Shown piece by piece: positions 54,944 to 64,000 of a stretch of DNA of 64,000 nt. How positions within the stretch are numbered: the stretch's first letter is position 1; every line of letters begins with the position of its first letter. The position numbers were made by a program, and so were the translations under genes. This DNA comes from an uncultured Pseudomonadales bacterium. Its GTDB lineage: Bacteria; Patescibacteriota; Microgenomatia; UBA1400; MFAQ01. The notes beneath the pieces were generated by a model. It searched no databases and had not been told where the DNA came from. It saw nothing but the letters and a program-made list of their open reading frames with translations. The stretch spans positions 100 to 64,099 of the forward strand of contig CAZARR010000005.1 in NCBI GenBank assembly GCA_964487665.1, in the 5' to 3' direction.

Positions 54944-56212
54944 TTAAAGTAACTTTTGATCAATTTCGATCTTGATTTTAGCAATAAAAGCTTGCAAAGT
55001 CATCTGTCCGAGGTCAGGTTGGTTCCGGGAACGTACAGAAACGATGTTTTGGGATTGTTCTTTTTCGCCTAAAATTAGCATATAAGGAATTTTTTGCGCT
55101 TGAGAGTTGTGGATTTTTTTGCCCAGAGTTTCTGCTGATTGGTCAAGCTCGGTGCGAATGTTTAGGGATTTTAAGCTCTCATCAACCTGTTTGGCATAAG
55201 GCAATATTTTGTCGGAAATGGGAAGCAAGGCAACCTGAACCGGAGAAAGCCAGGTTGGAAGTGAACCCGCAAAATGTTCCAATAAAAAGGCCGCGACTCT
55301 CTCGATAGCACCAATACTTGAACGGTGAATAACAATTGCCATTTGTTCGAGACCATCAGCACCAATAAATTTAAGATTAAACCTTTCAGGCATTACAAAA
55401 TCGTACTGGACGGTAAAGGCAGTTTCTTCGACTCCGGTTATCTTTTTCATTTGTATATCAATTTTTGGTCCATAAAAAGCAGCTTCGTCTGCTGCCTCGA
55501 AATAATCAGCGTTTCTTTCGACTAGAGAGTGGCGGAGTAGGTCTTCCGCGTCATCCCAGCCTTGTGGATCGTCAACGTATTTAGTTGTGTTTTTTCTGTC
55601 GCCAAGAGAGAGTCTATATCTGTAGTTACTACCAGGTTTCAGGCCAAATGTTTTTGCTACAAAATCAATTAAATTCAGGGCTCCTTTAATTTCCTCTTTA
55701 GCCTGTGCTTTGTTGGCGCAAATAATATGTGAATCGGCCAAACAAAAAGATCTGACTCGGGTGAGTCCAGATAATACCCCAGAAAGCTCGTACCGGTATA
55801 GCTTGGCGATCTCTGCAATCCGCATGGGTAATTCCTTGTAACTACGAGGCTGTGAGAGGAAGAGTTCAAAGTGGTGAGGGCAGGTCATAGGACGAAGCAT
55901 ATATTCTTCATCGTCAATTTTGATGGGGGCATACATTGTTTCTTTGTAGTAAGGGTAGTGGCCGGATTTTTTGTACAAATCAATTTTTCCGATATCTGGG
56001 GTGTAAACATGTTGGTAGCCCCATTTGAGTTCTGTATCCACCACAAAGTGTTCTAGTTCCCTTCTAAATGTGGCACCTTTTGCAGTCCACAAAGGCAATC
56101 CTTTGCCGACCACATCTGAGAATGTAAATAATCCTAATTCTCGACCCATTACTCGGTGATCACGGGGGTCAAGGGATTCGCTTTCTTGATGGTCTTGGTT
56201 TATTGTTTGCAT
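54944..56212 (-). CDS. thrS: threonine--tRNA ligase, minimal form (catalytic + anticodon-binding domains only)
   Basis: HRSSIGAIERVAAFLLEHFAGSLPTWLSPVQVALLPISDK parallels ThrRS motif 3 and the anticodon-binding domain. 422 aa versus ~640 in full-length enzymes (N1/N2 editing domains absent). Heads the thrS-infC-rpmI-rplT-pheST cluster. Confidence 0.88.
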   Translation of the reverse strand: MQTINQDHQESESLDPRDHRVMGRELGLFTFSDVVGKGLPLWTAKGATFRRELEHFVVDTELKWGYQHVYTPDIGKIDLYKKSGHYPYYKETMYAPIKIDDEEYMLRPMTCPHHFELFLSQPRSYKELPMRIAEIAKLYRYELSGVLSGLTRVRSFCLADSHIICANKAQAKEEIKGALNLIDFVAKTFGLKPGSNYRYRLSLGDRKNTTKYVDDPQGWDDAEDLLRHSLVERNADYFEAADEAAFYGPKIDIQMKKITGVEETAFTVQYDFVMPERFNLKFIGADGLEQMAIVIHRSSIGAIERVAAFLLEHFAGSLPTWLSPVQVALLPISDKILPYAKQVDESLKSLNIRTELDQSAETLGKKIHNSQAQKIPYMLILGEKEQSQNIVSVRSRNQPDLGQMTLQAFIAKIKIEIDQKLL

Positions 56213-56237
56213 TTGATTATATTTTTAATAAAAAACC

Positions 56238-56295
56238 ACCTTCGATTGCAGGATCCCGTAAGGGAGGTTCCATCCTGCTTACCAGTGGTGGTCTC
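56238..56295. promoter_or_regulatory. nested stem-loop (ACCACC ... GCAGGAT-CCC-GUAA-GGG-AGGUUCC-AUCCUGC ... GGUGGU) in the thrS 5' leader
   Basis: Perfect complementarity of outer (ACCACC/GGTGGT) and inner (GCAGGAT/ATCCTGC) stems. CCC/GGG closes a GTAA (GNRA) loop on the plus strand. Located 26-83 nt upstream of the thrS start. Confidence 0.3.
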
Positions 56296-56494
56296 TTGAT
56301 TGTCAGATTGGGGCTGACTCCCCTGCTTCTTTATGGTTGGTGTCCATATTCTAACGAAGCATTTCAGTTGTAATGGCAGTATAAGACTTGTTACGTTGTT
56401 ATTTCAAGTGGTGGTGTTATTCTAGCATTTGCTCGAACCCTTTTTGAACTGGCAAAACCGCTCCGCTTTCTTAATTCCGAACAAGTTTCGTTTG

Positions 56495-56601
56495 GTGGTC
56501 TTCTTTAGAGAAATTCTAACCTATTTCCGACAGAATTATTAACAGCGGAGCTCACCGCTCCGCGTGCGCGCCCCCACCCGCGCACGCCTCGCGGTTCGCA
56601 C
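56495..56601. repeat. IR-A (107 bp, GC-rich, contains two internal perfect hairpins)
   Basis: Reverse complement of 61036-61142 with a single mismatch. Internal palindromes CGGAGC-TCACC-GCTCCG and GCGTGCGCG-CCCCCACC-CGCGCACGC. Confidence 0.9.
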
Positions 56602-56969
56602 TATTTGTATTTTCGCTCGGTTTCCCTCGCTACGTGCTAACGCCCGCTTTGCACGCGATTTTTAAGAAAAGCGGTATCCCGTCCTCAAAGTCGAAGCTTC
56701 GCAACTCCATTTCGGTCGGGATATATTTGCCTTACGGCAAAGTGGCGATATTCATCACCACATTTATATGTTCGCCACAAGATCACATCTAGTGATTGTG
56801 GCGAAACTGTTCTCAAGATATGGCTCGCTCCACTCGCCATTAAATACCCACTGATTAGGAATCGATTTTATCAGTGGGTATTTATGCCTTGAGACAGTTT
56901 TTGTCTCTCAGTCGTGGGCCGATTTCCAGAGAGATGATACCTCTTACGTTTTTCCTCGAATGAAGTTGT

Positions 56970-57758
56970 TTATAAATTCTTAATCTGTAAAGAATCTGAG
57001 GATATAGCTTCATATATACACTTTATTTTTCTCATTTTAAGTTTATCTATAAAGATTTTTCTTTGTGCGCTCACTCGGACATAAGCATCAATTACAGCTT
57101 TTGTTGGAATAACTGGATTATTTTCATTCACCTCCCTATCTTTCAGCCGGGATAATGAAGCATCAAGGGAAGCCAAAATATCAACCACATAAATTATTTT
57201 GTATTCATTCTTAATTGCCATGTTGATTATCATTTCCAGATCTTCAACATATTCAAGTGTTCTTTCTGTGATGAAGCTTTTTCTTAATGAGAATATCTTC
57301 TCATACGTCCAAAGGGTCACAAAATACGCTTCAAGATCGTACTGATTATCTTTTGTTCCTGTTATGGCAAACTTTTTTAGTTTACTCCGTATGTTGTCTG
57401 GTCCAATTACTCCTGACTTTATTTTGAAAACATTTTTAATAAAAGTTGATTTCCCCGCTCCGGGCTGGCCTCTCACTATTATTACGGATGGTGATAATTT
57501 ATGACCCAACTTTTTTTGTATAATGGTTTCAATTTTTTTCAAGTTATTATTATTCTCCTGAATTAACTCATAGGTGATTTTTTTATGAAATATTTGTCTT
57601 AGAGGAACCCAGTTGCTATGGAGCTTTAAAGTTTCATAAGTTTCGTCCCAGTCATTCTTTTGCCAGTCTTTTTTAAGATTCGAAAAAAGTTTAAATGTTT
57701 CTAGGTTGGGAAACAACCATAATTTGACGTTATTAAGAAAATATAAAAAAGCTTCCAT
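56970..57758 (-). CDS. P-loop NTPase/kinase-like protein (zeta-toxin/AAA_33-like Walker A)
   Basis: Walker A IVRGQPGAGKSTFIKN roughly 105 aa from the N-terminus. Walker B-like IIYVVDI. 262 aa. Confidence 0.5.
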   Translation of the reverse strand: MEAFLYFLNNVKLWLFPNLETFKLFSNLKKDWQKNDWDETYETLKLHSNWVPLRQIFHKKITYELIQENNNNLKKIETIIQKKLGHKLSPSVIIVRGQPGAGKSTFIKNVFKIKSGVIGPDNIRSKLKKFAITGTKDNQYDLEAYFVTLWTYEKIFSLRKSFITERTLEYVEDLEMIINMAIKNEYKIIYVVDILASLDASLSRLKDREVNENNPVIPTKAVIDAYVRVSAQRKIFIDKLKMRKIKCIYEAISSDSLQIKNL

Positions 57759-58508
57759 CTATTTCACAGCAGTAATTAAAAAAGGATCCGATATTACAGA
57801 TATTTCTCCGTTGACAAATAACTCATCAATTCTGCTCATGTCTTTCTCAGGATCAAAGTCTCTTATTATTGGTGCCATTGTGAAGATCGTGATAATGTCT
57901 TCCCGTGTGTAGCTTTTATTAAAGCTGAATTGAGAGTATGAAAATGTTTGCGGTTTCTCTTTTCTTAATTTTTCAATGTATATCAGAGGATCAGTCAGCT
58001 TCATTCTTTTTGTAAATAGTTCGGTAATTCCACCGAATCCCTTAAGTAATCCATATTCTTTAAAAATAAACAGACCTCCTGGTTTTAATACCCGAAACAC
58101 CTCAGAAAAAGAAAAATTAGTAGCTAATTTATTAGTTATCACATCAAAATAATTATCCTCAAAAGGTAAAGAAAAGTTATCTCCGTAAACTATTTTTATT
58201 TGAGGAAAATCTTTGCATTTTGCGGATGCCTCTGTGACCATTTTTTCTGATAAATCTATACCATATAAACTTTTCCCCTTAATATTTTGTAGATTCTTAA
58301 TTATTTCGGTAAGTACATAGCCATTGCCTGTGCCGATATCTAACAACTTTCCTAAGTCAAATTCGTTCAGATGATTGGCCGCCAACTTAATTAAAGAGCT
58401 TGTTGTATCATCTGTGGCTTGATGTGAACCATAAAATGATTCTCTCGTCTTGACTACCTTATTGGTGTAAAAAGACGCACTGGAATTATTGTCTTGCGAT
58501 CGGTTCAT
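57759..58508 (-). CDS. class I SAM-dependent methyltransferase
   Basis: Motif I LLDIGTGNGYVLTEI. Acidic motif II YGIDLSE. Motif post-II VLKPGGLFIF. The track ORF extends to 58610; start likely M at 58508. Confidence 0.7.
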   Translation of the reverse strand: MNRSQDNNSSASFYTNKVVKTRESFYGSHQATDDTTSSLIKLAANHLNEFDLGKLLDIGTGNGYVLTEIIKNLQNIKGKSLYGIDLSEKMVTEASAKCKDFPQIKIVYGDNFSLPFEDNYFDVITNKLATNFSFSEVFRVLKPGGLFIFKEYGLLKGFGGITELFTKRMKLTDPLIYIEKLRKEKPQTFSYSQFSFNKSYTREDIITIFTMAPIIRDFDPEKDMSRIDELFVNGEISVISDPFLITAVK

Positions 58509-59310
58509 ACTTTGTGGCCTTAACAATAATTGTCCCAGGAATTCTCCGCAGATGCTCATAACTGAAAGGATTGGCTTTTGGGTTACCAACGTACCTCGAT
58601 CTGGTGGCAAAATTATTTGACCTTTCCTCTAAAATTGGCTCAGGTTCTAATAAATTATTGATTACGAATCCAGCTTTGATGACAGACATGACATAATCAG
58701 AAACAGTTTTAAATGATCCGGTCATTGTGGCAGAAATGTTGTCTTCCGGAAACTCGTATTGCCAAGTCTTCATTTCACGATCAAAATAATTATTAAGGAT
58801 AAAGTTATCTTCACTATTCCAATAACCGTGATCTCTAACCGGATGGTCGGCGCTAAAAACTAAAGATCCATTCGGTTTTAATAATCTAAACATTTGTCTC
58901 ATCACACTTTCAAGTGAATCCACGGTCATGCAATATTGAAGAGCAAATGCAGAAACCACCAAATCAAAGGATTCAGGACCAAAATGCTTTTCTACTTCTT
59001 CAAAGTTGCCTTGAACAAATTCAACTATGGCTTTTTCAGATATGGCAAGTTCTTTTCCGTGTTTTAACTGCTCTTCGGATATGTCAAATGCGGTGACTTC
59101 TGCTCCGCGTTTCGATAGAAAAATAGAATTTTGGGCAGATCCAGAACCTAACTCTAAGACTTTCTTGCCCTTAACAGTGCCAAGCAACGTATCTAAATCA
59201 CTCGAATCGCAAAGCGGACCCCAGTAGTATTTATTAGTCTTAATATCGTATCTTTTTTGATAGCTTTTGGATATCTGTTCCCAACCTTCTTTGTTATCAA
59301 GCCTTTTCAT
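58486..59310 (-). CDS. class I SAM-dependent methyltransferase (Methyltransf_11/25-like)
   Basis: Motif I VLELGSGSAQNSIFLSKRGAEVTAFDISEEQL. LLKPNGSLVFS. 274 aa. Confidence 0.75.
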   Translation of the reverse strand: MKRLDNKEGWEQISKSYQKRYDIKTNKYYWGPLCDSSDLDTLLGTVKGKKVLELGSGSAQNSIFLSKRGAEVTAFDISEEQLKHGKELAISEKAIVEFVQGNFEEVEKHFGPESFDLVVSAFALQYCMTVDSLESVMRQMFRLLKPNGSLVFSADHPVRDHGYWNSEDNFILNNYFDREMKTWQYEFPEDNISATMTGSFKTVSDYVMSVIKAGFVINNLLEPEPILEERSNNFATRSRYVGNPKANPFSYEHLRRIPGTIIVKATKYEPIARQ

Positions 59311-60418
59311 TGTTCAATATCATCTGGTAATAATGCTTAATTTTTGAATAAGCATCATTTAGTGTGTTTCCAATTCCAAGTTCTCCATGAAACCTAAGTA
59401 TCATAAATCCATTGTTCTTTTGCAGATGAGGAACAGTTGGAATAATTGCATCAAAACTCCCATATCGGACATACTCAGGTGTTTTATATTCTTCAAGTGC
59501 GTCGGAATAAGTCATGGGACCGCAATGTGAATGGGCTATGGCATTTGTTCCAGTAGTTTGATAATAGACAATGTGCATTGGCGTATCACATGAAGGCATT
59601 TTTTCACCACACCAAGCGACTTTATCTTTAGTTTTTAGATTGATAAGAGTTAAATCTTGAAGAGCAAGGTTTCCCAATCTGCTTCCTGTGCTCGTGATTA
59701 GAGCCCAGTTATCGTCTACTCTAATACTGTAATTGCCATTGGTCGAAAAATTGGTTCTATCTTTTTCTTGTGTTTCTCCTAGTGTTCTAAAAACTTCATA
59801 ATATTTCTTCCTGGAATTATTTAAGAGTTCAAGTGTTTGTGGGTCTGACATCTGTTCCGAATCAAAAATGATTTTTGACTCTTCTATATAAAGTCTATCC
59901 AGAGCCCTCCTGTAATCCATCATGGAAACTTTTTCTTTGGTTATATTGGGCCAAATAATGATCACGCCCCAACTTTCTAATTTCTTAAGTGACTCCATAG
60001 TTTGAGGATGATTCCACATATCTTTGTTAAATGCTGGTATAACCAAGACTCTTTTTTTCTTGCCGATAGCGGTTGCTACTAAAGTGGTTGGATAGTTATC
60101 TGCAATACCAAGAGCGATTTTGTTAAACGTGTTAAACGTGCACGGAGCAACAATTACGATATCTTCTTCGGGAATGGACCTTCTTGGACCATGCCAATTA
60201 AAATCCTCATGGATATTATCCGAGAATTTTTTAAGCGGTTCGATAATATTTAAGGCTTTCTCGGTTGGGAATAGGTGGACGTTGCATCCCTGGCCAATCA
60301 GTTCATCCGCCATTTCTGCAATTTTTTCTATCTTTCCGGCAGCTGTGACAACCAAATATACAGTCTTCCCGGAGATTGTTTGTCTTGGAATTTTTATCAG
60401 ATGCTCATTCATTTCCAA
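59297..60418 (-). CDS. fusion protein: N-terminal HFCD-type flavoprotein (EpiD/CoaC-like) + C-terminal class II aldolase/adducin-like domain
   Basis: N-terminal GKTVYLVVTAAGKIEK ... IVIVAPCTFNTFNKIALGIADNYPTTLV ... VLVIPAFNKDMW matches the Flavoprotein (PF02441) consensus. C-terminal IAHSHCGPMTY resembles the class II aldolase HxH metal-binding region. Confidence 0.6.
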   Translation of the reverse strand: MEMNEHLIKIPRQTISGKTVYLVVTAAGKIEKIAEMADELIGQGCNVHLFPTEKALNIIEPLKKFSDNIHEDFNWHGPRRSIPEEDIVIVAPCTFNTFNKIALGIADNYPTTLVATAIGKKKRVLVIPAFNKDMWNHPQTMESLKKLESWGVIIIWPNITKEKVSMMDYRRALDRLYIEESKIIFDSEQMSDPQTLELLNNSRKKYYEVFRTLGETQEKDRTNFSTNGNYSIRVDDNWALITSTGSRLGNLALQDLTLINLKTKDKVAWCGEKMPSCDTPMHIVYYQTTGTNAIAHSHCGPMTYSDALEEYKTPEYVRYGSFDAIIPTVPHLQKNNGFMILRFHGELGIGNTLNDAYSKIKHYYQMILNNEKA

Positions 60419-60951
60419 AGTTTTCTGGCTTTTAATATTTCGTATGACAAAATTGGAATAACTGTTGGTGTCGTCATAAAAGGTAAAGCACAGGGAATGG
60501 TGATTTTTTCATCCATCAGTGCCAGCTGATCTTTGGAGAGGCCATTGGCTCCGCCGATCATAATTACATCATTGTCCAGCCATTCAAAATCTAAAGCATT
60601 ATCTCCTCCATTGGGGACTGTGGCTACAAGACGGAACCCCTGTCTTTTTAATTCTTCAAGTGAATTCTCTCGCCTCGGAATGGCATCTACATCATTTTTA
60701 GTTAAGTTCCAGGATTCCACCTTGGAAGCTACTTTAGGGTGAGAAAAGTCAAGAGTTACCCCAATCATTTCAAAACCAACGTGCGGCACACCAACTTTTG
60801 TTGCCAAAGAAACTTGAGCCGCCTGAGCAATATCAAAAGGTTTATCTAGGTTCACCAGGGCAAACCGGACTGGCGGAACGACACATCGTTTCTCCCACTC
60901 ACTCCAGGAGCTTAGAGAATTTTCTAAGCCGTATTCTTGGTTTATTTCCAT
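60409..60951 (-). CDS. SPOUT-class (SpoU/TrmH/TrmL-like) RNA 2'-O-methyltransferase
   Basis: IMIGGANGLSKDQLALMDEKITIP (motif 2-like) and TTPTVIPILSYEIL (motif 3-like). 180 aa minimal SPOUT. Confidence 0.55.
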   Translation of the reverse strand: MEINQEYGLENSLSSWSEWEKRCVVPPVRFALVNLDKPFDIAQAAQVSLATKVGVPHVGFEMIGVTLDFSHPKVASKVESWNLTKNDVDAIPRRENSLEELKRQGFRLVATVPNGGDNALDFEWLDNDVIMIGGANGLSKDQLALMDEKITIPCALPFMTTPTVIPILSYEILKARKLWK

Positions 60952-61035
60952 GTTGTTAATTTTAGCACAGATTTGATAGATATTCAGCTTATAGGCTGTT
61001 AATTTTTGCGTTTTCTGGTCGAGCCAACTCTTTGA

Positions 61036-61142
61036 GTGCGAACCGCGAGGCGTGCGCGAGTGGGGGCGCGCACGCGGAGCGGTGAGCTCCGCTGTTAATA
61101 ATTCTGTCGGAAATAGGTTAGAATTTCTCTAAAGAAGACCAC
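61036..61142. repeat. IR-A' (107 bp), inverted copy of IR-A
   Basis: Reverse complement of 56495-56601 (106/107). Shares its last 4 bp (CCAC) with the start of IR-B. Confidence 0.9.
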
Positions 61143-61227
61143 AATAATAGAGGTTCGCCCTGCTGGGGCGGCAGTCGCCCGCGCGAGAGCGGCCGCGCGG
61201 AGCGATACAAACGGCTTTTTGTATTCG
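61139..61227. repeat. IR-B (89 bp, GC-rich, several internal palindromes)
   Basis: Identical to the reverse complement of 63873-63961. Internal palindromes GGGCG-GCAGT-CGCCC, CGCGCG ... CGCGCG and ATACAAA ... TTTGTAT. Confidence 0.9.
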
Positions 61228-61309
61228 GGTCTAAAAAGATAGACAGAAAACGCAAAAATATAAATAGGTAAAACCTGTTTCTCTTCAGTTTCGGGAAATA
61301 TATGGTTAA

Positions 61310-62341
61310 ATGGTAATTAAGGTGAAATATATTGCCTACTGCCGGAAGAGTACTGATGAGAAAGACAAACAGGTTTTGAGTATTGAGTCGCAGATCGCGG
61401 AGTTAGAGGAGTTTGCCGGAAAGGAGAAACTGGAAGTTGTTTCCTGGATTGTAGAGAGCAAGACGGCCAGGGTTCCGGGGAGACCCAAGTTTGAGGAAGC
61501 TTTGAGATTGGTTGAATCCGGGAAAGCCGATGGACTTTTCGCCTGGCATCCAGACCGTCTTGCCAGAAATTCGGTAGATGGCGGTAGAATCATTTACTTA
61601 CTGGATACCGGCAAACTCCTTAATCTTAAATTCCCGACGTTCTGGTTTGAGAACACGCCCCAAGGCAAGTTTATGCTGAATATTGCCTTCGGCCAATCTA
61701 AGTATTACGTAGATAACCTAAGTGAGAATGTCAGCCGTGGATTAAGACAGAAGATTAGAAATGGAATCTGGCCAAGCAAAGCCCCTCACGGCTACTTTAA
61801 CTGTCCTCAAACCAGGACGATCAAGGTGGACAAGAAAAAATCAATAGTGGTCAAACAAGCTTTTGAATTGTTCGCGACAGGGAAATACAGTTACCACGAA
61901 ATTGGTAAGTTTCTCGCCTCTCACGGAATTCACGGCAGATCTCGGGAAGTATTACATCAGTCTGTGGTTAAAACCATGCTCACCAATCCCTTTTACATCG
62001 GTATCCTCGTCTATTCTGGCGAGAAATACAAAGGCAGTCACCAACAATTCATTGGGAGAGACTTGTTTGACCAAGTTCAAGAGCAGGTCAAGTATAAAAG
62101 TAAACCCCGGAAACATGGTCACAACTTTGCCTTTACTGGTTTAATTAAATGCCGTGAATGCGGAGGGGCAATTACGGCCGAGGAACACATCAAGCACTAT
62201 CCTACGACCCGTGGTGAGGTCAGATATGTTTACTACCGCTGTTCCAAGAAAATGGGTGTGAGATGTTCTCAGCCATATCTTGCCGAAGATAAATTGGTAA
62301 AGCAAATCTGGCTTAATTTAAGTTATGTGTTGGTAATTTAG
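61310..62341 (+). pseudogene. large serine recombinase, N-terminal fragment (resolvase catalytic domain + recombinase domain + zinc ribbon), interrupted by IS insertion
   Basis: YIAYCRKSTDEKDKQVLSIESQ (catalytic Ser region). LFAWHPDRLARN. Recombinase domain. Zinc ribbon CRECGG ... YYRCSKK ... C. The frame diverges after LVKQI exactly at the IS left end. Confidence 0.8.
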
Positions 62342-63440
62342 CCGTTTGGCGGGTAAAAACGAGTTAAGTACAGGTACCAGGAAATAAGATTCTCTTTGCT
62401 TGTTTGGGTCATGCCACGGTGGATCAATATTTTGTTGTCAAGCTGGGAGTAGGAGCCTTCGGAGCTGTTGTTGTCTTTGGGGAGATTGGGGTAGCGAAAG
62501 TAGGTAAACATGTGAGGGAGCGCTTGATAGAGATGCTGGTAGCTTTGACGCAAGTACGGGTGGGTGTACCACCACTTAGGAGTCTTTCGCTCAGGATCGT
62601 CATTGAACGTTTTTGTTGTAAAGAATTGGTAATGCCGTTTGTAGAGACGGATAAACCAGCGGATGAAGATTTTGGCTTCGTAAGTGGTAGTGATTTTGTT
62701 GATATGGGAGGCAAGGAGTAGTAGGTCTTTTCCCGCCTCTGTTTGGGGGTGTTGGGTTAAGAGAGTTTGGATTCTGGTTTGGATATGGACGAGACAACGC
62801 TGCACGGGGACAGATAAGCTGCTGCAGGCAGAAAACATGGCTTTCTTGCCGTCAAAGATGGCTACCTTGAGTGGGTATCCTGCCTCAACCAAATACTCAA
62901 TATCAGCCTTAATCACGGCGAGGTATTCCCCACCCGCTAGAGACCAATAAATGAGCCCTAACTTGGTATCGCGATAGGTAATGAGACAGCGGTCACCAAA
63001 CCAGTCAGCATCGATTAAAAGGTAACCAGTACAATCGCTCCAACTGGCAGTAGTTTTGAGCTTAACAAAGTAGGTTTGAGAGGTGGGAGGTGAAGCCAAA
63101 TATTGCTGGAATCTAATACTTAACGAGGGGACTGATAGGCCAGAGAGCTCACTTAAGTAGGCTAGGGTTGACGTATGTCGCACCCACTGGCAAAATAAAC
63201 GGAATAGCTTGCGACTGGAGACTCTTTCTTTATTGCCCAAACTGAAACAGGAGTGGCAATTAGAGCAATAAAATCGACACTTCCCCTTACTAGTTTTTCC
63301 CCACTTTATAGCTGGGTTTTGACACTGTGGGCAGTGGTGAAAACGCTTGTTTTTTTCATGGGTAGATATTTTAGACGCATATTAGTGCGATAACAAGGAA
63401 AAAACAACCATTTTCACCAACACTTAAGTTAAATTAAACC
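62310..63440. mobile_element. insertion sequence (1131 bp) with ~27-bp imperfect terminal inverted repeats and 8-bp target-site duplication GCAAATCT
   Basis: TSD copies at 62302-62309 and 63441-63448. Left end GGCTTAATTTAAGTTATGTGTTGGTAA. Right end (reverse complement) GGTTTAATTTAACTTAAGTGTTGGTGAA (23/27). Encodes one transposase ORF. Inserted within the serine recombinase gene. Confidence 0.75.
62338..63240 (-). CDS. IS transposase (DDE-type candidate; QRCLVH motif reminiscent of IS256/Mutator-family, family uncertain)
   Basis: 300-aa ORF filling the IS. Candidate acidic residues in LLIDADWFGD and VAIFDGKKA. VQRCLVHIQTR motif. Confidence 0.55.
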   Translation of the reverse strand: MGNKERVSSRKLFRLFCQWVRHTSTLAYLSELSGLSVPSLSIRFQQYLASPPTSQTYFVKLKTTASWSDCTGYLLIDADWFGDRCLITYRDTKLGLIYWSLAGGEYLAVIKADIEYLVEAGYPLKVAIFDGKKAMFSACSSLSVPVQRCLVHIQTRIQTLLTQHPQTEAGKDLLLLASHINKITTTYEAKIFIRWFIRLYKRHYQFFTTKTFNDDPERKTPKWWYTHPYLRQSYQHLYQALPHMFTYFRYPNLPKDNNSSEGSYSQLDNKILIHRGMTQTSKENLISWYLYLTRFYPPNG

Positions 63441-63872
63441 GCAAATCTCCGCTTGTATATCAGATATTGCCCTTCCGCACTCCTGGGCGAAGAGATGGTT
63501 TACCTGGGCTGAAGAAGAGGTAGAAAAAGACCGGCAAAGTTGTGACAAGATAACAATTCAGGTCAGGGGTGAATTAAAACAGATCGAGGAGAAAACCGAC
63601 AGACTGCTTGACCTGTATCTTGAACAGAATTTAGCTGAAGAAATCTACAAGAAGAAGCAAAACCAACTATTTGAGGAGAAGACAAAACTCATGGCTCAAA
63701 TTGAAAAGAGTAAAGGAGGAGGTTCGATCTGGCTCGAACCAATGAAAGAATTTATAGATTGCGCCCTGCAGGCGCAAAAAATCGCGCGCAAAGAATATAC
63801 AAATGGCAAAATCTGCGATTTTGCCAAAAGAGTTGGCTCGACCTATCTTTTAGACAGGGGAAAAATTAGAGT

Positions 63873-63961
63873 CGAATACAAAAAGCCGTTTGTATCGCTC
63901 CGCGCGGCCGCTCTCGCGCGGGCGACTGCCGCCCCAGCAGGGCGAACCTCTATTATTGTGG
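63873..63961. repeat. IR-B' (89 bp), inverted copy of IR-B, abutting tRNA-Val 3' end
   Basis: Perfect reverse complement of 61139-61227. Its terminal GTGG overlaps the last 3 nt of the tRNA. Confidence 0.9.
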
Positions 63962-64000
63962 ACGATGCTGGAGTCGAACCAGCGACCTCTGCAATGTCAA
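63959..64000 (-). tRNA. tRNA-Val(GAC), 3' portion (truncated by window end)
   Basis: Minus strand reads ...UUGACAU-UGCAG-AGGUC-GCUGG-UUCGACU-CCAGC-AUCGUCC-A. T-arm GCUGG/CCAGC with loop UUCGACU. Anticodon loop UUGACAU gives GAC. Discriminator A. The 5' half lies beyond 64000. Confidence 0.6.

Follow-up and report, generated by a model that had tools for sequence, protein, structure and literature searches.

A rare methyltransferase, SPOUT and flavoprotein::aldolase module carried by a tRNA-integrated element in a Microgenomatia contig, with a tentative role in small-molecule tailoring

What do five tightly packed genes, framed by near-perfect inverted repeats, contribute to a bacterium of the Candidate Phyla Radiation (CPR)? 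The question is raised by a stretch of 64,000 nucleotides from an uncultured Microgenomatia bacterium (contig CAZARR010000005.1 of assembly GCA_964487665.1, positions 100 to 64,099), referred to here as the window. Its positions 56970-60951 encode, in the direction of transcription, a divergent SPOUT protein, an HFCD-like flavoprotein fused to a class II aldolase, two class I S-adenosylmethionine (SAM) methyltransferases (MT1 and MT2) and a P-loop kinase. A sequence-only reading had described these genes as an unassigned modification cassette, possibly phase variable, acting either on a nucleoside- or sugar-phosphate-like small molecule or on RNA. All five open reading frames (ORFs) were found where it had placed them on the minus strand, and its domain calls (Flavoprotein plus Aldolase_II, Methyltransf_11/25, SpoU and Zeta_toxin/AAA_33) were borne out by Pfam and NCBIfam, SpoU only at the level of a family profile. 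The operon-like packing that it had remarked upon is likewise real: neighboring genes abut or overlap by 4-23 nt, the SPOUT/fusion junction is an ATGA stop/start overlap, and the five minus-strand genes form one translationally coupled operon. As outlined below, three of them form the core of a rare, undescribed module that crosses domains of life and whose core trio is held by no known pathway.

The genes that belong together can be recognized from their neighborhoods in other genomes. All five recur in the same order on four other contigs (L009, a WWE3 metagenome-assembled genome with 41-67% identity, L090, L145 and L146) and partly on L091. The expected co-occurrence in relatives is thus found and the cassette does recur as a unit, but not as an invariant one, since only MT2, SPOUT and the fusion are broadly kept, the trio being present in more than 60 loci. 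A word-indexed search found 44 clusters homologous to the fusion, and an exhaustive search of 1.84 billion representatives with a hidden Markov model of the fusion returned 43 matches at E <= 1e-30, about 30 of them full length. Genome loci in which the fusion is full length number 33, and in every one of them a SPOUT ortholog adjoins it; an MT2 ortholog is found in 28, usually in the order MT2, SPOUT, fusion. Counted over all loci compared, MT2 orthologs neighbor SPOUT and fusion genes in 28 of 34 genome and 31 of 49 metagenome loci. Scanning metagenome contigs reciprocally from the SPOUT gene, the fusion was adjacent in 34 of 49 loci, the others being five contig ends, six loci that share one SPOUT-alone context and four other contexts. 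At L111, L113, L114, L122, L125 and L126 the SPOUT gene stands alone where L139 has radical SAM, methyltransferase, MT2, SPOUT and fusion genes, which suggests partial loss of the module. Core-trio loci occur within the CPR in WWE3, Saccharibacteria/Nanosyncoccus, Moranii- and Paceibacterota and Berkelbacteria, and outside it in DPANN archaea (Nano- and Pacearchaeota) and gut Clostridia. From this distribution the invariant core is MT2, SPOUT and fusion, with MT1 and the kinase as additions of one CPR lineage.

Around the core, the partner genes vary from lineage to lineage. Variant A (Saccharibacteria and others) adds a further methyltransferase and a divergent radical SAM protein of about 303 aa with CxxxCxxC plus three C-terminal Cys. 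Variant B (DPANN-type, at least 10 loci) begins with MT2, a thioredoxin reductase (TrxR)-like flavoenzyme without CxxC, SPOUT, the fusion and a protein called c8, and continues with an archaeal-NMNAT-like nucleotidyltransferase, one or two methyltransferases, a NUDIX protein and a canonical RlmB/TrmH-like SpoU. In gut Clostridia (variant C) the set is a methyltransferase, NUDIX, MT2, SPOUT and the fusion, and variant D is the window type, carrying MT1 and the kinase. MT1 also occurs in some variant-B operons, and its ortholog in L009 is 62% identical. For c8 (182 aa), neither Pfam nor NCBIfam gave a match, and a profile search of the PDB gave E values of 0.5-1.4 only. In gut Clostridia the module lies beside genes for relaxase, NikA/MobC, RepA_N, TnpV and tyrosine integrase (L001/L002/L003, L021, L129), which indicates carriage on mobilizable elements, and its GC content differs from that of the flanks. 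The module is a rare and horizontally spread one, of which the window holds the Microgenomates/WWE3-lineage version. A set of proteins with lengths of about 320 aa or 800 aa (P0209-P0214, P0217 and P0225) match the fusion profile only at positions ~110-355, from the last part of the flavoprotein domain through the linker and over the aldolase domain, and may be differently built members of this aldolase subfamily. The neighborhoods of standalone flavoprotein relatives in Chloroflexota and actinomycetes show no consistent partner.

The fusion protein gives the first indication of what chemistry such a module may perform. Pfam recognizes Flavoprotein (PF02441) at 75.6 bits and Aldolase_II at 53 bits, and the AlphaFold2 model consists of two confident domains (pLDDT 91.3, pTM 0.87). 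Structure prediction and Foldseek agree with the composition first proposed: the N-terminal domain is of EpiD type, with matches to EpiD and phosphopantothenoylcysteine decarboxylase (E 1e-10 for both), CoaBC and UbiX, and the C-terminal domain is of FucA type, with matches to FucA, YgbL/OtnC and DrdA. The protein is no housekeeping CoaBC or MtnB, as every NCBIfam equivalog score is far below its cut-off; Pfam finds no DFP/CoaB domain in it. Searching the literature, no description of this domain combination or of the module was found.

Much of the functional argument can be drawn from the aldolase domain. Its metal-binding His triad (H295, H297 and H343) is invariant, with H.H[CS] in 64 of 68 sequences, and an HGE motif is invariant as well. 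The GN.S, TSTGS (TxTGS) and PSS phosphate positions align with those of solved FucA-type aldolases (FucA N29, T43/G44 and S71/S72). At the acid/base position, Glu73, 58 of 68 sequences read PSSE; the clade of the window reads PSCD, a conservative Glu-to-Asp change. The Tyr of a conserved EYLRYG possibly corresponds to FucA Tyr113. With the triad, the phosphate positions and the acid/base residue intact, the aldolase-type site looks competent for a phosphorylated hydroxy-carbonyl substrate. One use for such a site would be salvage of SAM by-products: by analogy with the dihydroxyacetone phosphate shunt, the aldolase would cleave a 5-deoxy- or 5-thio-pentulose 1-phosphate derived from 5'-deoxyadenosine (5'-dA), 5'-methylthioadenosine (MTA) or S-adenosylhomocysteine (SAH), the flavoprotein domain would dispose of the aldehyde, and the module would serve the SAM enzymes next to it. 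Such enzymes always surround the module, and the weak best matches include the MtnB, DrdA-type and ribulose-1-phosphate aldolase families. However, a nucleosidase/phosphorylase, an MtnK-type sugar kinase and an isomerase are encoded in no variant, methyltransferases release SAH rather than MTA or 5'-dA, and salvage would leave the sporadic carriage on mobile elements unexplained. We therefore regard it as very improbable.

The flavin domain calls for a different comparison. Across the family alignment it has an invariant FMN (flavin mononucleotide)-type core, PCTFNT..K.A.GIADNY. In a profile alignment that included wild-type EpiD and its H67N mutant, EpiD His67 falls on a variable column, and the fusion family has an invariant PEED there. 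The PxMNxxMW motif reads PAFNKDMWNHP in the window, and in many members the N is replaced by G or the W by F; N..[YMF]W is found in 11 of 68 sequences, and the Asn is not invariant across the family. From these residues, the flavin domain looks like a redox module and not a Cys decarboxylase. This bears directly on whether the module could tailor a peptide made by the ribosome and modified after translation (RiPP), with the HFCD domain decarboxylating a C-terminal Cys as LanD does and the methyltransferases and a radical SAM/SPASM enzyme modifying the precursor. EpiD is indeed the top match of the N-terminal domain in both sequence and fold, yet its His67 is not conserved and the Asn of PxMNxxMW is not invariant. 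The radical SAM partner has peptide maturases (MftC, sactipeptide) as its best NCBIfam matches, but its gene is missing from most loci, the window included. There are also weak daptide methyltransferase matches, and at L090 (9933-11241) two further genes come after that for the kinase, a 63-aa ORF and one for a radical SAM/SPASM protein (356 aa), the latter a distant relative, at 23-29% identity, of the radical SAM protein of variant A. Set against these are the lack of any protease, transporter or leader-recognition gene and the results of a search for precursors: small ORFs (18-90 aa, at most 4.5 kb from the fusion, about 30 loci, BLAST-clustered) are shared by very close relatives only. None is conserved across clades, in agreement with the earlier remark that no precursor peptide was to be seen. 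Peptide tailoring is accordingly judged highly improbable.

The SPOUT protein raises the question of RNA. Taken alone, the window protein scores 24.7 bits against SpoU_methylase, below the gathering score of 29.7; its homologs carry precomputed SpoU matches, and a profile of 25 orthologs matches the TrmL, RlmB and TrmH structures at 5e-11 to 1e-10 (TrmL 5e-11). Judged by these profiles, the SPOUT assignment is solid at family level. The motif-2 glycines G134 and G137 are invariant, within FGTExSGL in most members and GG-ANGLS in the window clade. Motif 1, however, reads D40.A42...Q46.A48 instead of N..G...R.A, and motif 3 has FLT in place of SLN; by alignment to the TrmH motif, the D40 and Q46 columns probably correspond to TrmH N35 and R41. 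The family thus appears to have kept the SAM-binding knot motifs without the Asn and Arg that RNA 2'-O-methyltransferases use for catalysis. The core proteins are also acidic to neutral, with median isoelectric points (pI) of 6.2-6.4 (SPOUT 6.4, and 5.1 for the window protein), compared with 8.35 for the canonical SpoU of variant B.

Both class I methyltransferases match Methyltransf_11/25 at 56-72 bits. The sole near-full-length solved relative of MT2 is phosphoethanolamine N-methyltransferase, and RNA methyltransferases match MT2 in the SAM-binding core only. Weak matches link MT2 to RlmA and ChrB, and the methyltransferase MT c5 to Erm and KsgA, all of them far below the family cut-offs. 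The kinase matches Zeta_toxin (37.4 bits) and AAA_33 (37.2 bits) above the Pfam cut-offs and XopAJ/AvrRxo1 at E = 1e-11. It has the P-loop fold and Walker A motif of the zeta clade and is nearest to AvrRxo1 and zeta, which are NAD (nicotinamide adenine dinucleotide) and sugar-nucleotide kinases; after these come matches to the kinase domain of Pnkp (12.7), to zeta (12.4) and to PezT (11.7). Characterized zeta and AvrRxo1 kinases have UDP-GlcNAc (uridine diphosphate N-acetylglucosamine) or NAD as substrates (PMC5491322, PMC5087710). No antitoxin or chaperone gene (epsilon, PezA or Arc1) lies beside the window kinase: MT2 abuts it upstream, and the 367-nt spacer downstream holds no ORF conserved in L009 or L090.

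Could the module then act on RNA? In that case the SPOUT and class I enzymes would methylate conserved positions of tRNA or rRNA, as a hypermodification or for protection from an antibiotic, the fusion would supply or process an RNA-attached group, and the kinase and NUDIX proteins would act on RNA ends. The nearest profiles of the SPOUT protein, namely TrmL, RlmB and TrmH, point in this direction and, to our knowledge, all characterized SPOUT enzymes are directed at RNA except for one that methylates a ribosomal protein; yet the motif-1 Asn and Arg and the motif-3 SLN are those that the family lacks. The matches of MT2 to RlmA and ChrB and of MT c5 to Erm and KsgA can be cited in support as well, but they have the weakness noted above and do not extend beyond the SAM-binding core. 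In structure, polynucleotide kinases match the kinase almost equally well, a canonical SpoU is present within variant-B operons, and a target that is universal would account for the transfer between bacteria and archaea. Carriage on mobilizable elements in gut Clostridia resembles that of resistance genes, although resistance determinants are normally single genes and not operons of 3-10 genes. Also against RNA are the acidity of the core proteins and the fusion itself, as a flavoprotein::aldolase whose sugar-phosphate site is intact is not known to take part in RNA methylation. We consider action on RNA, including the rRNA-methylation immunity suggested at first, the main contender, if an unlikely one.

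We favor, tentatively and with a confidence that falls just short of even, the reading in which the module tailors a small molecule of phosphorylated sugar or nucleotide type; of the options entertained at the outset, a nucleoside- or sugar-phosphate-like substrate remains the best. This reading is based on the intact sugar-phosphate-type aldolase site, on a kinase of the NAD and sugar-nucleotide clade, on the nucleotide-centered accessories (NUDIX, NMNAT-like), on a SPOUT protein without the catalytic residues of RNA methyltransferases and on the acidity of the proteins. Leaning the same way are the TrxR-like flavoenzyme without CxxC, the kinship of MT2 with phosphoethanolamine N-methyltransferase, the sporadic, mobile distribution and the foreign GC content (0.363 in the cassette and 0.423 in the remaining window). 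In such a pathway, the fusion would link a redox step that depends on FMN with metal-enediolate chemistry on a hydroxy-carbonyl intermediate that bears a phosphate, whether C-C cleavage or formation, epimerization or decarboxylation. Since the two domains are physically fused, they may channel a reactive aldehyde or enol. SPOUT and MT2, and here also MT1, would attach methyl groups, and the kinase would add a phosphate to a sugar hydroxyl, either in the product or in one of its precursors. In other lineages, the NUDIX, NMNAT-like, TrxR-like and radical SAM enzymes would stand in for the kinase.

Several points weigh against a small molecule. Neither a riboswitch nor a transporter is found alongside the module: Rfam gave no riboswitch or other RNA beside it at gathering scores in the window and eight representative loci, nor at permissive E-values on 56150-61320. 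Variant-B operons end in a canonical RlmB/TrmH-like SpoU, the RlmA, Erm and KsgA matches of the class I enzymes lean toward RNA, and so does the record of characterized SPOUT enzymes; in the literature, no precedent for a SPOUT enzyme acting on a small molecule was found. The pI argument is weak. An attempt to place c8 among LOG/SLOG-like proteins by its GxGTL.E motif was not significant.

A more specific proposal can be made with greater reserve, and we think it rather unlikely in full: the trio would be an undescribed unit that makes a methylated, phosphorylated metabolite derived from a sugar or nucleotide, its SPOUT protein would be the first to work on a small molecule, its fusion would channel an aldehyde or enol, and the product would possibly be a toxic or antiviral nucleotide analog. 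Each variant carries one enzyme of a self-protection type: for the window type this is the kinase, L004/L020 have a GNAT acetyltransferase, and variant B has an rRNA-type SpoU. The pattern could reflect a toxic nucleotide analog, or it could be coincidence. Such an analog, if real, would explain the protection enzymes of each variant, the mobile carriage and the way the module has spread among CPR and DPANN epibionts and gut Clostridia. In these hosts, nearly every retained or acquired gene matters. Should the small-molecule reading hold, a compact and portable pathway would be common to the symbionts with the smallest genomes (CPR, DPANN) and gut Clostridia. For enzymology, the module raises the questions of what an HFCD flavoprotein does without its catalytic His, why it is fused to an intact class II aldolase and whether a SPOUT protein can work on anything but RNA. 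With 3-5 genes, it is small enough for heterologous expression.

Why the cassette is framed by inverted repeats is a separate question, and its answer lies in the carrier (Table 1). The repeats had been described as 107-bp arms with the cassette exactly between them. They are real and the cassette does lie between them, but they are 108 nt long with one mismatch (56495-56602 and 61035-61142), and 367 nt separate IR-A from the kinase stop and 83 nt the SPOUT start from IR-A'. A second inverted pair (IR-B and IR-B') of 96 nt with two mismatches joins 61139-61234 to 63866-63961, and the inner arms of both pairs abut. Next to them lies a gene for a large serine recombinase, whose N-terminal ORF as called spans 61310-62341 and which is interrupted by an insertion sequence (IS). 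The transposase matches NCBIfam IS1249 at 5.5e-33 and an IS256 variant at 1.6e-30; at its ends the IS carries 25-bp inverted repeats, its insertion has duplicated 8 bp of the target, GCAAATCT, and it is present as a single copy within the window. With the IS and a single copy of this duplication taken out, the recombinase frame is restored in register to 63961 and continues directly into the 3' half of a minus-strand tRNA (63962-64000). The minus strand from 61234 to 61035 encodes the same C-terminal peptide of the recombinase, which continues through ...GRTSIIVVFFREILTYFRQNY and a stop. This internal copy reads ...YKKPFVSLRAAALARATAAPAGRTSIIVVFFREILTYFRQNY and stop, with GC-rich hairpins after it; it is an intact recombinase 3' end.

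Table 1. Features of the cassette and its carrier element in the window
Feature	Position	Strand	Basis or remark
Host sequence between thrS and element; attB left half, thrS leader	56213..56494	.	Short conserved blocks shared with L143 thrS leader
attL arm 'a' (IR-A), with the final 16 codons and stop codon of the native recombinase ORF, then GC-rich hairpins	56495..56602	+	GC 0.574; GTGG core at junction
Non-coding spacer, 367 nt, 3' of kinase gene, contains hairpin 56841-56884	56603..56969	.	Sequence
AvrRxo1/zeta-like P-loop kinase, 262 aa, pI 9.5	56970..57758	-	Pfam, NCBIfam
MT2, class I SAM methyltransferase, core-trio partner	57759..58508	-	Methyltransf_11/25; ORF extends to 58610
MT1, second class I SAM methyltransferase, 274 aa	58486..59310	-	Methyltransf_11/25/31; TehB 35.8 bits
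HFCD-like flavoprotein::class II aldolase fusion, 371-373 aa	59297..60412	-	Pfam, AlphaFold2, Foldseek
Divergent TrmL-like SPOUT protein, 180 aa, pI 5.1	60409..60951	-	Weak Pfam SpoU match; family profile
83-nt region upstream of operon, presumed promoter, inside IR-A/IR-A' segment	60952..61034	-	Sequence reading
Internal inverted copy of attP/recombinase 3' end (IR-A' and IR-B)	61035..61234	-	99% and 98% identical to outer arms
Large serine recombinase, N-terminal part	61310..62309	+	Resolvase, Recombinase, Zn_ribbon_recom; CcrB/XisF-like
IS256/IS1249-family insertion sequence inside recombinase gene	62310..63440	-	Transposase 62338-63240
Large serine recombinase, C-terminal part, ends in att arm B' (63866-63961) at attR	63449..63961	+	
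tRNA-Val(GAC) 3' half, integration target, cut by window end	63962..64000	-	

Three junctions can be compared in one orientation: X/a, between host sequence X and arm 'a' (56494/56495), the internal, inverted B'/a, and B'/tRNA (63961/63962). Because a GTGG core is common to all, B'/a can be identified as attP, and X/a and B'/tRNA as attL and attR. Joining X to the tRNA side (63962-64000) rebuilds ...GCATCGTCCA-CCA, a complete acceptor end and hence the reconstructed attB. In L143, which is syntenic over thrS-infC-rpmI-rplT-pheST, tRNA-Val(GAC) lies 184 nt upstream of thrS with nothing between, as expected of an empty site, and its 3' half is identical to the tRNA fragment of the window at 27 of 32 bases. 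From the att junctions, the restored tRNA end and the empty site of L143, the cassette is best read as the sole cargo of a 7.47-kb integrative element (56495-63961) in the 3' end of tRNA-Val(GAC) beside thrS. Since attP lies within the recombinase's own 3' end, integration replaces the last 16 codons of the recombinase. The element now appears immobilized by the IS that disrupts its recombinase gene. We reject an assembly artifact as the source of the repeats, as the copies differ by 1 and 2 bases, the set of attL, attR and attP is coherent and a relative has the empty site. Searching a collection of viral contigs, no relatives of the recombinase or of the att arm were found.

Of the suggestion that the segment is mobile or invertible, the first part is to be read as cargo of a tRNA-integrated serine-recombinase element that an IS has inactivated, and the second is not supported. 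Phase variation would require the cassette to be inverted by recombination between the 108-nt repeats, and its ingredients seem at hand: near-perfect inverted repeats surround the cassette and a second pair the recombinase, the serine recombinase is adjacent, and a GTGG crossover core marks the end of each repeat. But the repeats are att arms and an inverted attP copy, and the recombinase is broken by the IS. As both arms are identical, inversion would leave the junction sequences unchanged; the 83-nt upstream region would travel with the operon, and no on/off switch is apparent. The other five-gene loci have no inverted repeats, att-like sequence or recombinase, so the repeats belong to the carrier and not to the cassette. 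A phase-variable function, also part of the original description, is in our judgment improbable. An inversion between 61139 and 63961 (IR-B/IR-B') would give the recombinase ORF back its native C-terminus, together with the terminator hairpins. Arm 'a' holds a weak sigma-70-like match, TTAATA-18-TAGAAT, at 56513-56542 (-) and 61095-61124 (+); the copies face outward, one toward thrS and the other toward the recombinase gene, and the scan as a whole was at about background level.

Several details of the locus complete the picture. The MT2 ORF (283 aa) most likely has its true start at Met35 (58508), which would give a protein of about 249 aa, a length like that of its homologs. The fusion probably starts with the ATG at 60412, where the ORF was called to 60418 and the NCBI product has 371 aa. 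A scan for promoters and terminators was at about background level, and a strong consensus promoter was not found in the 83-nt upstream region. The spacer downstream of the kinase shows no protein similarity, no Rfam match above noise and no counterpart in other five-gene loci; the hairpin within it is imperfect and 44 nt long. Scanning the five proteins with PADLOC for anti-phage defense systems gave generic methyltransferase-domain matches to mad2 only and none for the fusion, SPOUT or kinase, so that no defense system was recognized, and PHROGs gave generic methyltransferase and P-loop matches only. On the plus strand, the GC skew across window positions 1-64000 is strongly and persistently positive (0.06-0.40 per kb) and drops below zero only over the integrated element (about 56-61 kb). 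The neighboring ThrS (54944-56212), by which the host is judged to be a CPR bacterium of the Microgenomates group, has 422 aa and is without the N-terminal TGS/editing (tRNA_SAD) region. The nearest relatives, of 414-428 aa, lack it too, and PF07973 is present in CPR ThrS proteins that are farther removed and have 585-600 aa.

How does the module compare with known systems? With EpiD, MrsD, CoaC/Dfp and AtHAL3a, the N-terminal domain of the fusion shares the fold, a PASANT-like FMN motif and a variant of PxMNxxMW..NP. It differs from HFCD Cys decarboxylases in having PEED instead of the conserved catalytic His (EpiD His67/Dfp His75), in lacking the substrate-clamp Cys and a CoaB domain, in its attached aldolase domain and in a locus without a precursor peptide. 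The C-terminal domain shares with FucA, AraD, MtnB, DrdA and OtnC/YgbL the fold, the metal triad of three His, the phosphate positions and the Glu73 position. It is about equidistant from all characterized class II aldolase subfamilies, sits C-terminal to an HFCD domain and, in the clade of the window, has Cys-Asp rather than Ser-Glu at the acid/base position. The SPOUT protein has the minimal size of TrmL, shares the glycine-rich motif 2, the larger part of motif 3 and a Trp where TrmL has ..YW with TrmL, TrmH and RlmB, and departs from them in its altered motif 1, FLT for SLN, its acidity and its obligate pairing with the fusion gene. The kinase, unlike zeta toxin, PezT and AvrRxo1, is the last gene of a biosynthetic-looking operon and not half of a two-gene toxin-antitoxin pair; it also has an N-terminal helical extension of ~85 residues, modeled at low confidence.

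For the module as a whole, an analogy can be found in nucleoside antibiotics. The puromycin and A201A clusters combine NUDIX, several SAM methyltransferases, a ribose redox step and a self-protection enzyme (a kinase, N-acetyltransferase or rRNA methylase). Each module variant likewise carries one such self-protection-type enzyme, a parallel that we draw as an analogy only. The module is without a ligase or aminotransferase scaffold enzyme and without an exporter, and the resemblance is at the level of superfamilies. The carrier, for its part, can be set beside SCCmec Ccr, XisF elements, Tn4451 TnpX and serine-integrase prophages, with which it shares the Resolvase, Recombinase and Zn-ribbon domains, site-specific insertion, a short crossover core and a small cargo. 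Its design is unusual: attP lies inside the 3' end of the recombinase gene, and a second, inverted copy of attP is kept as a spare.

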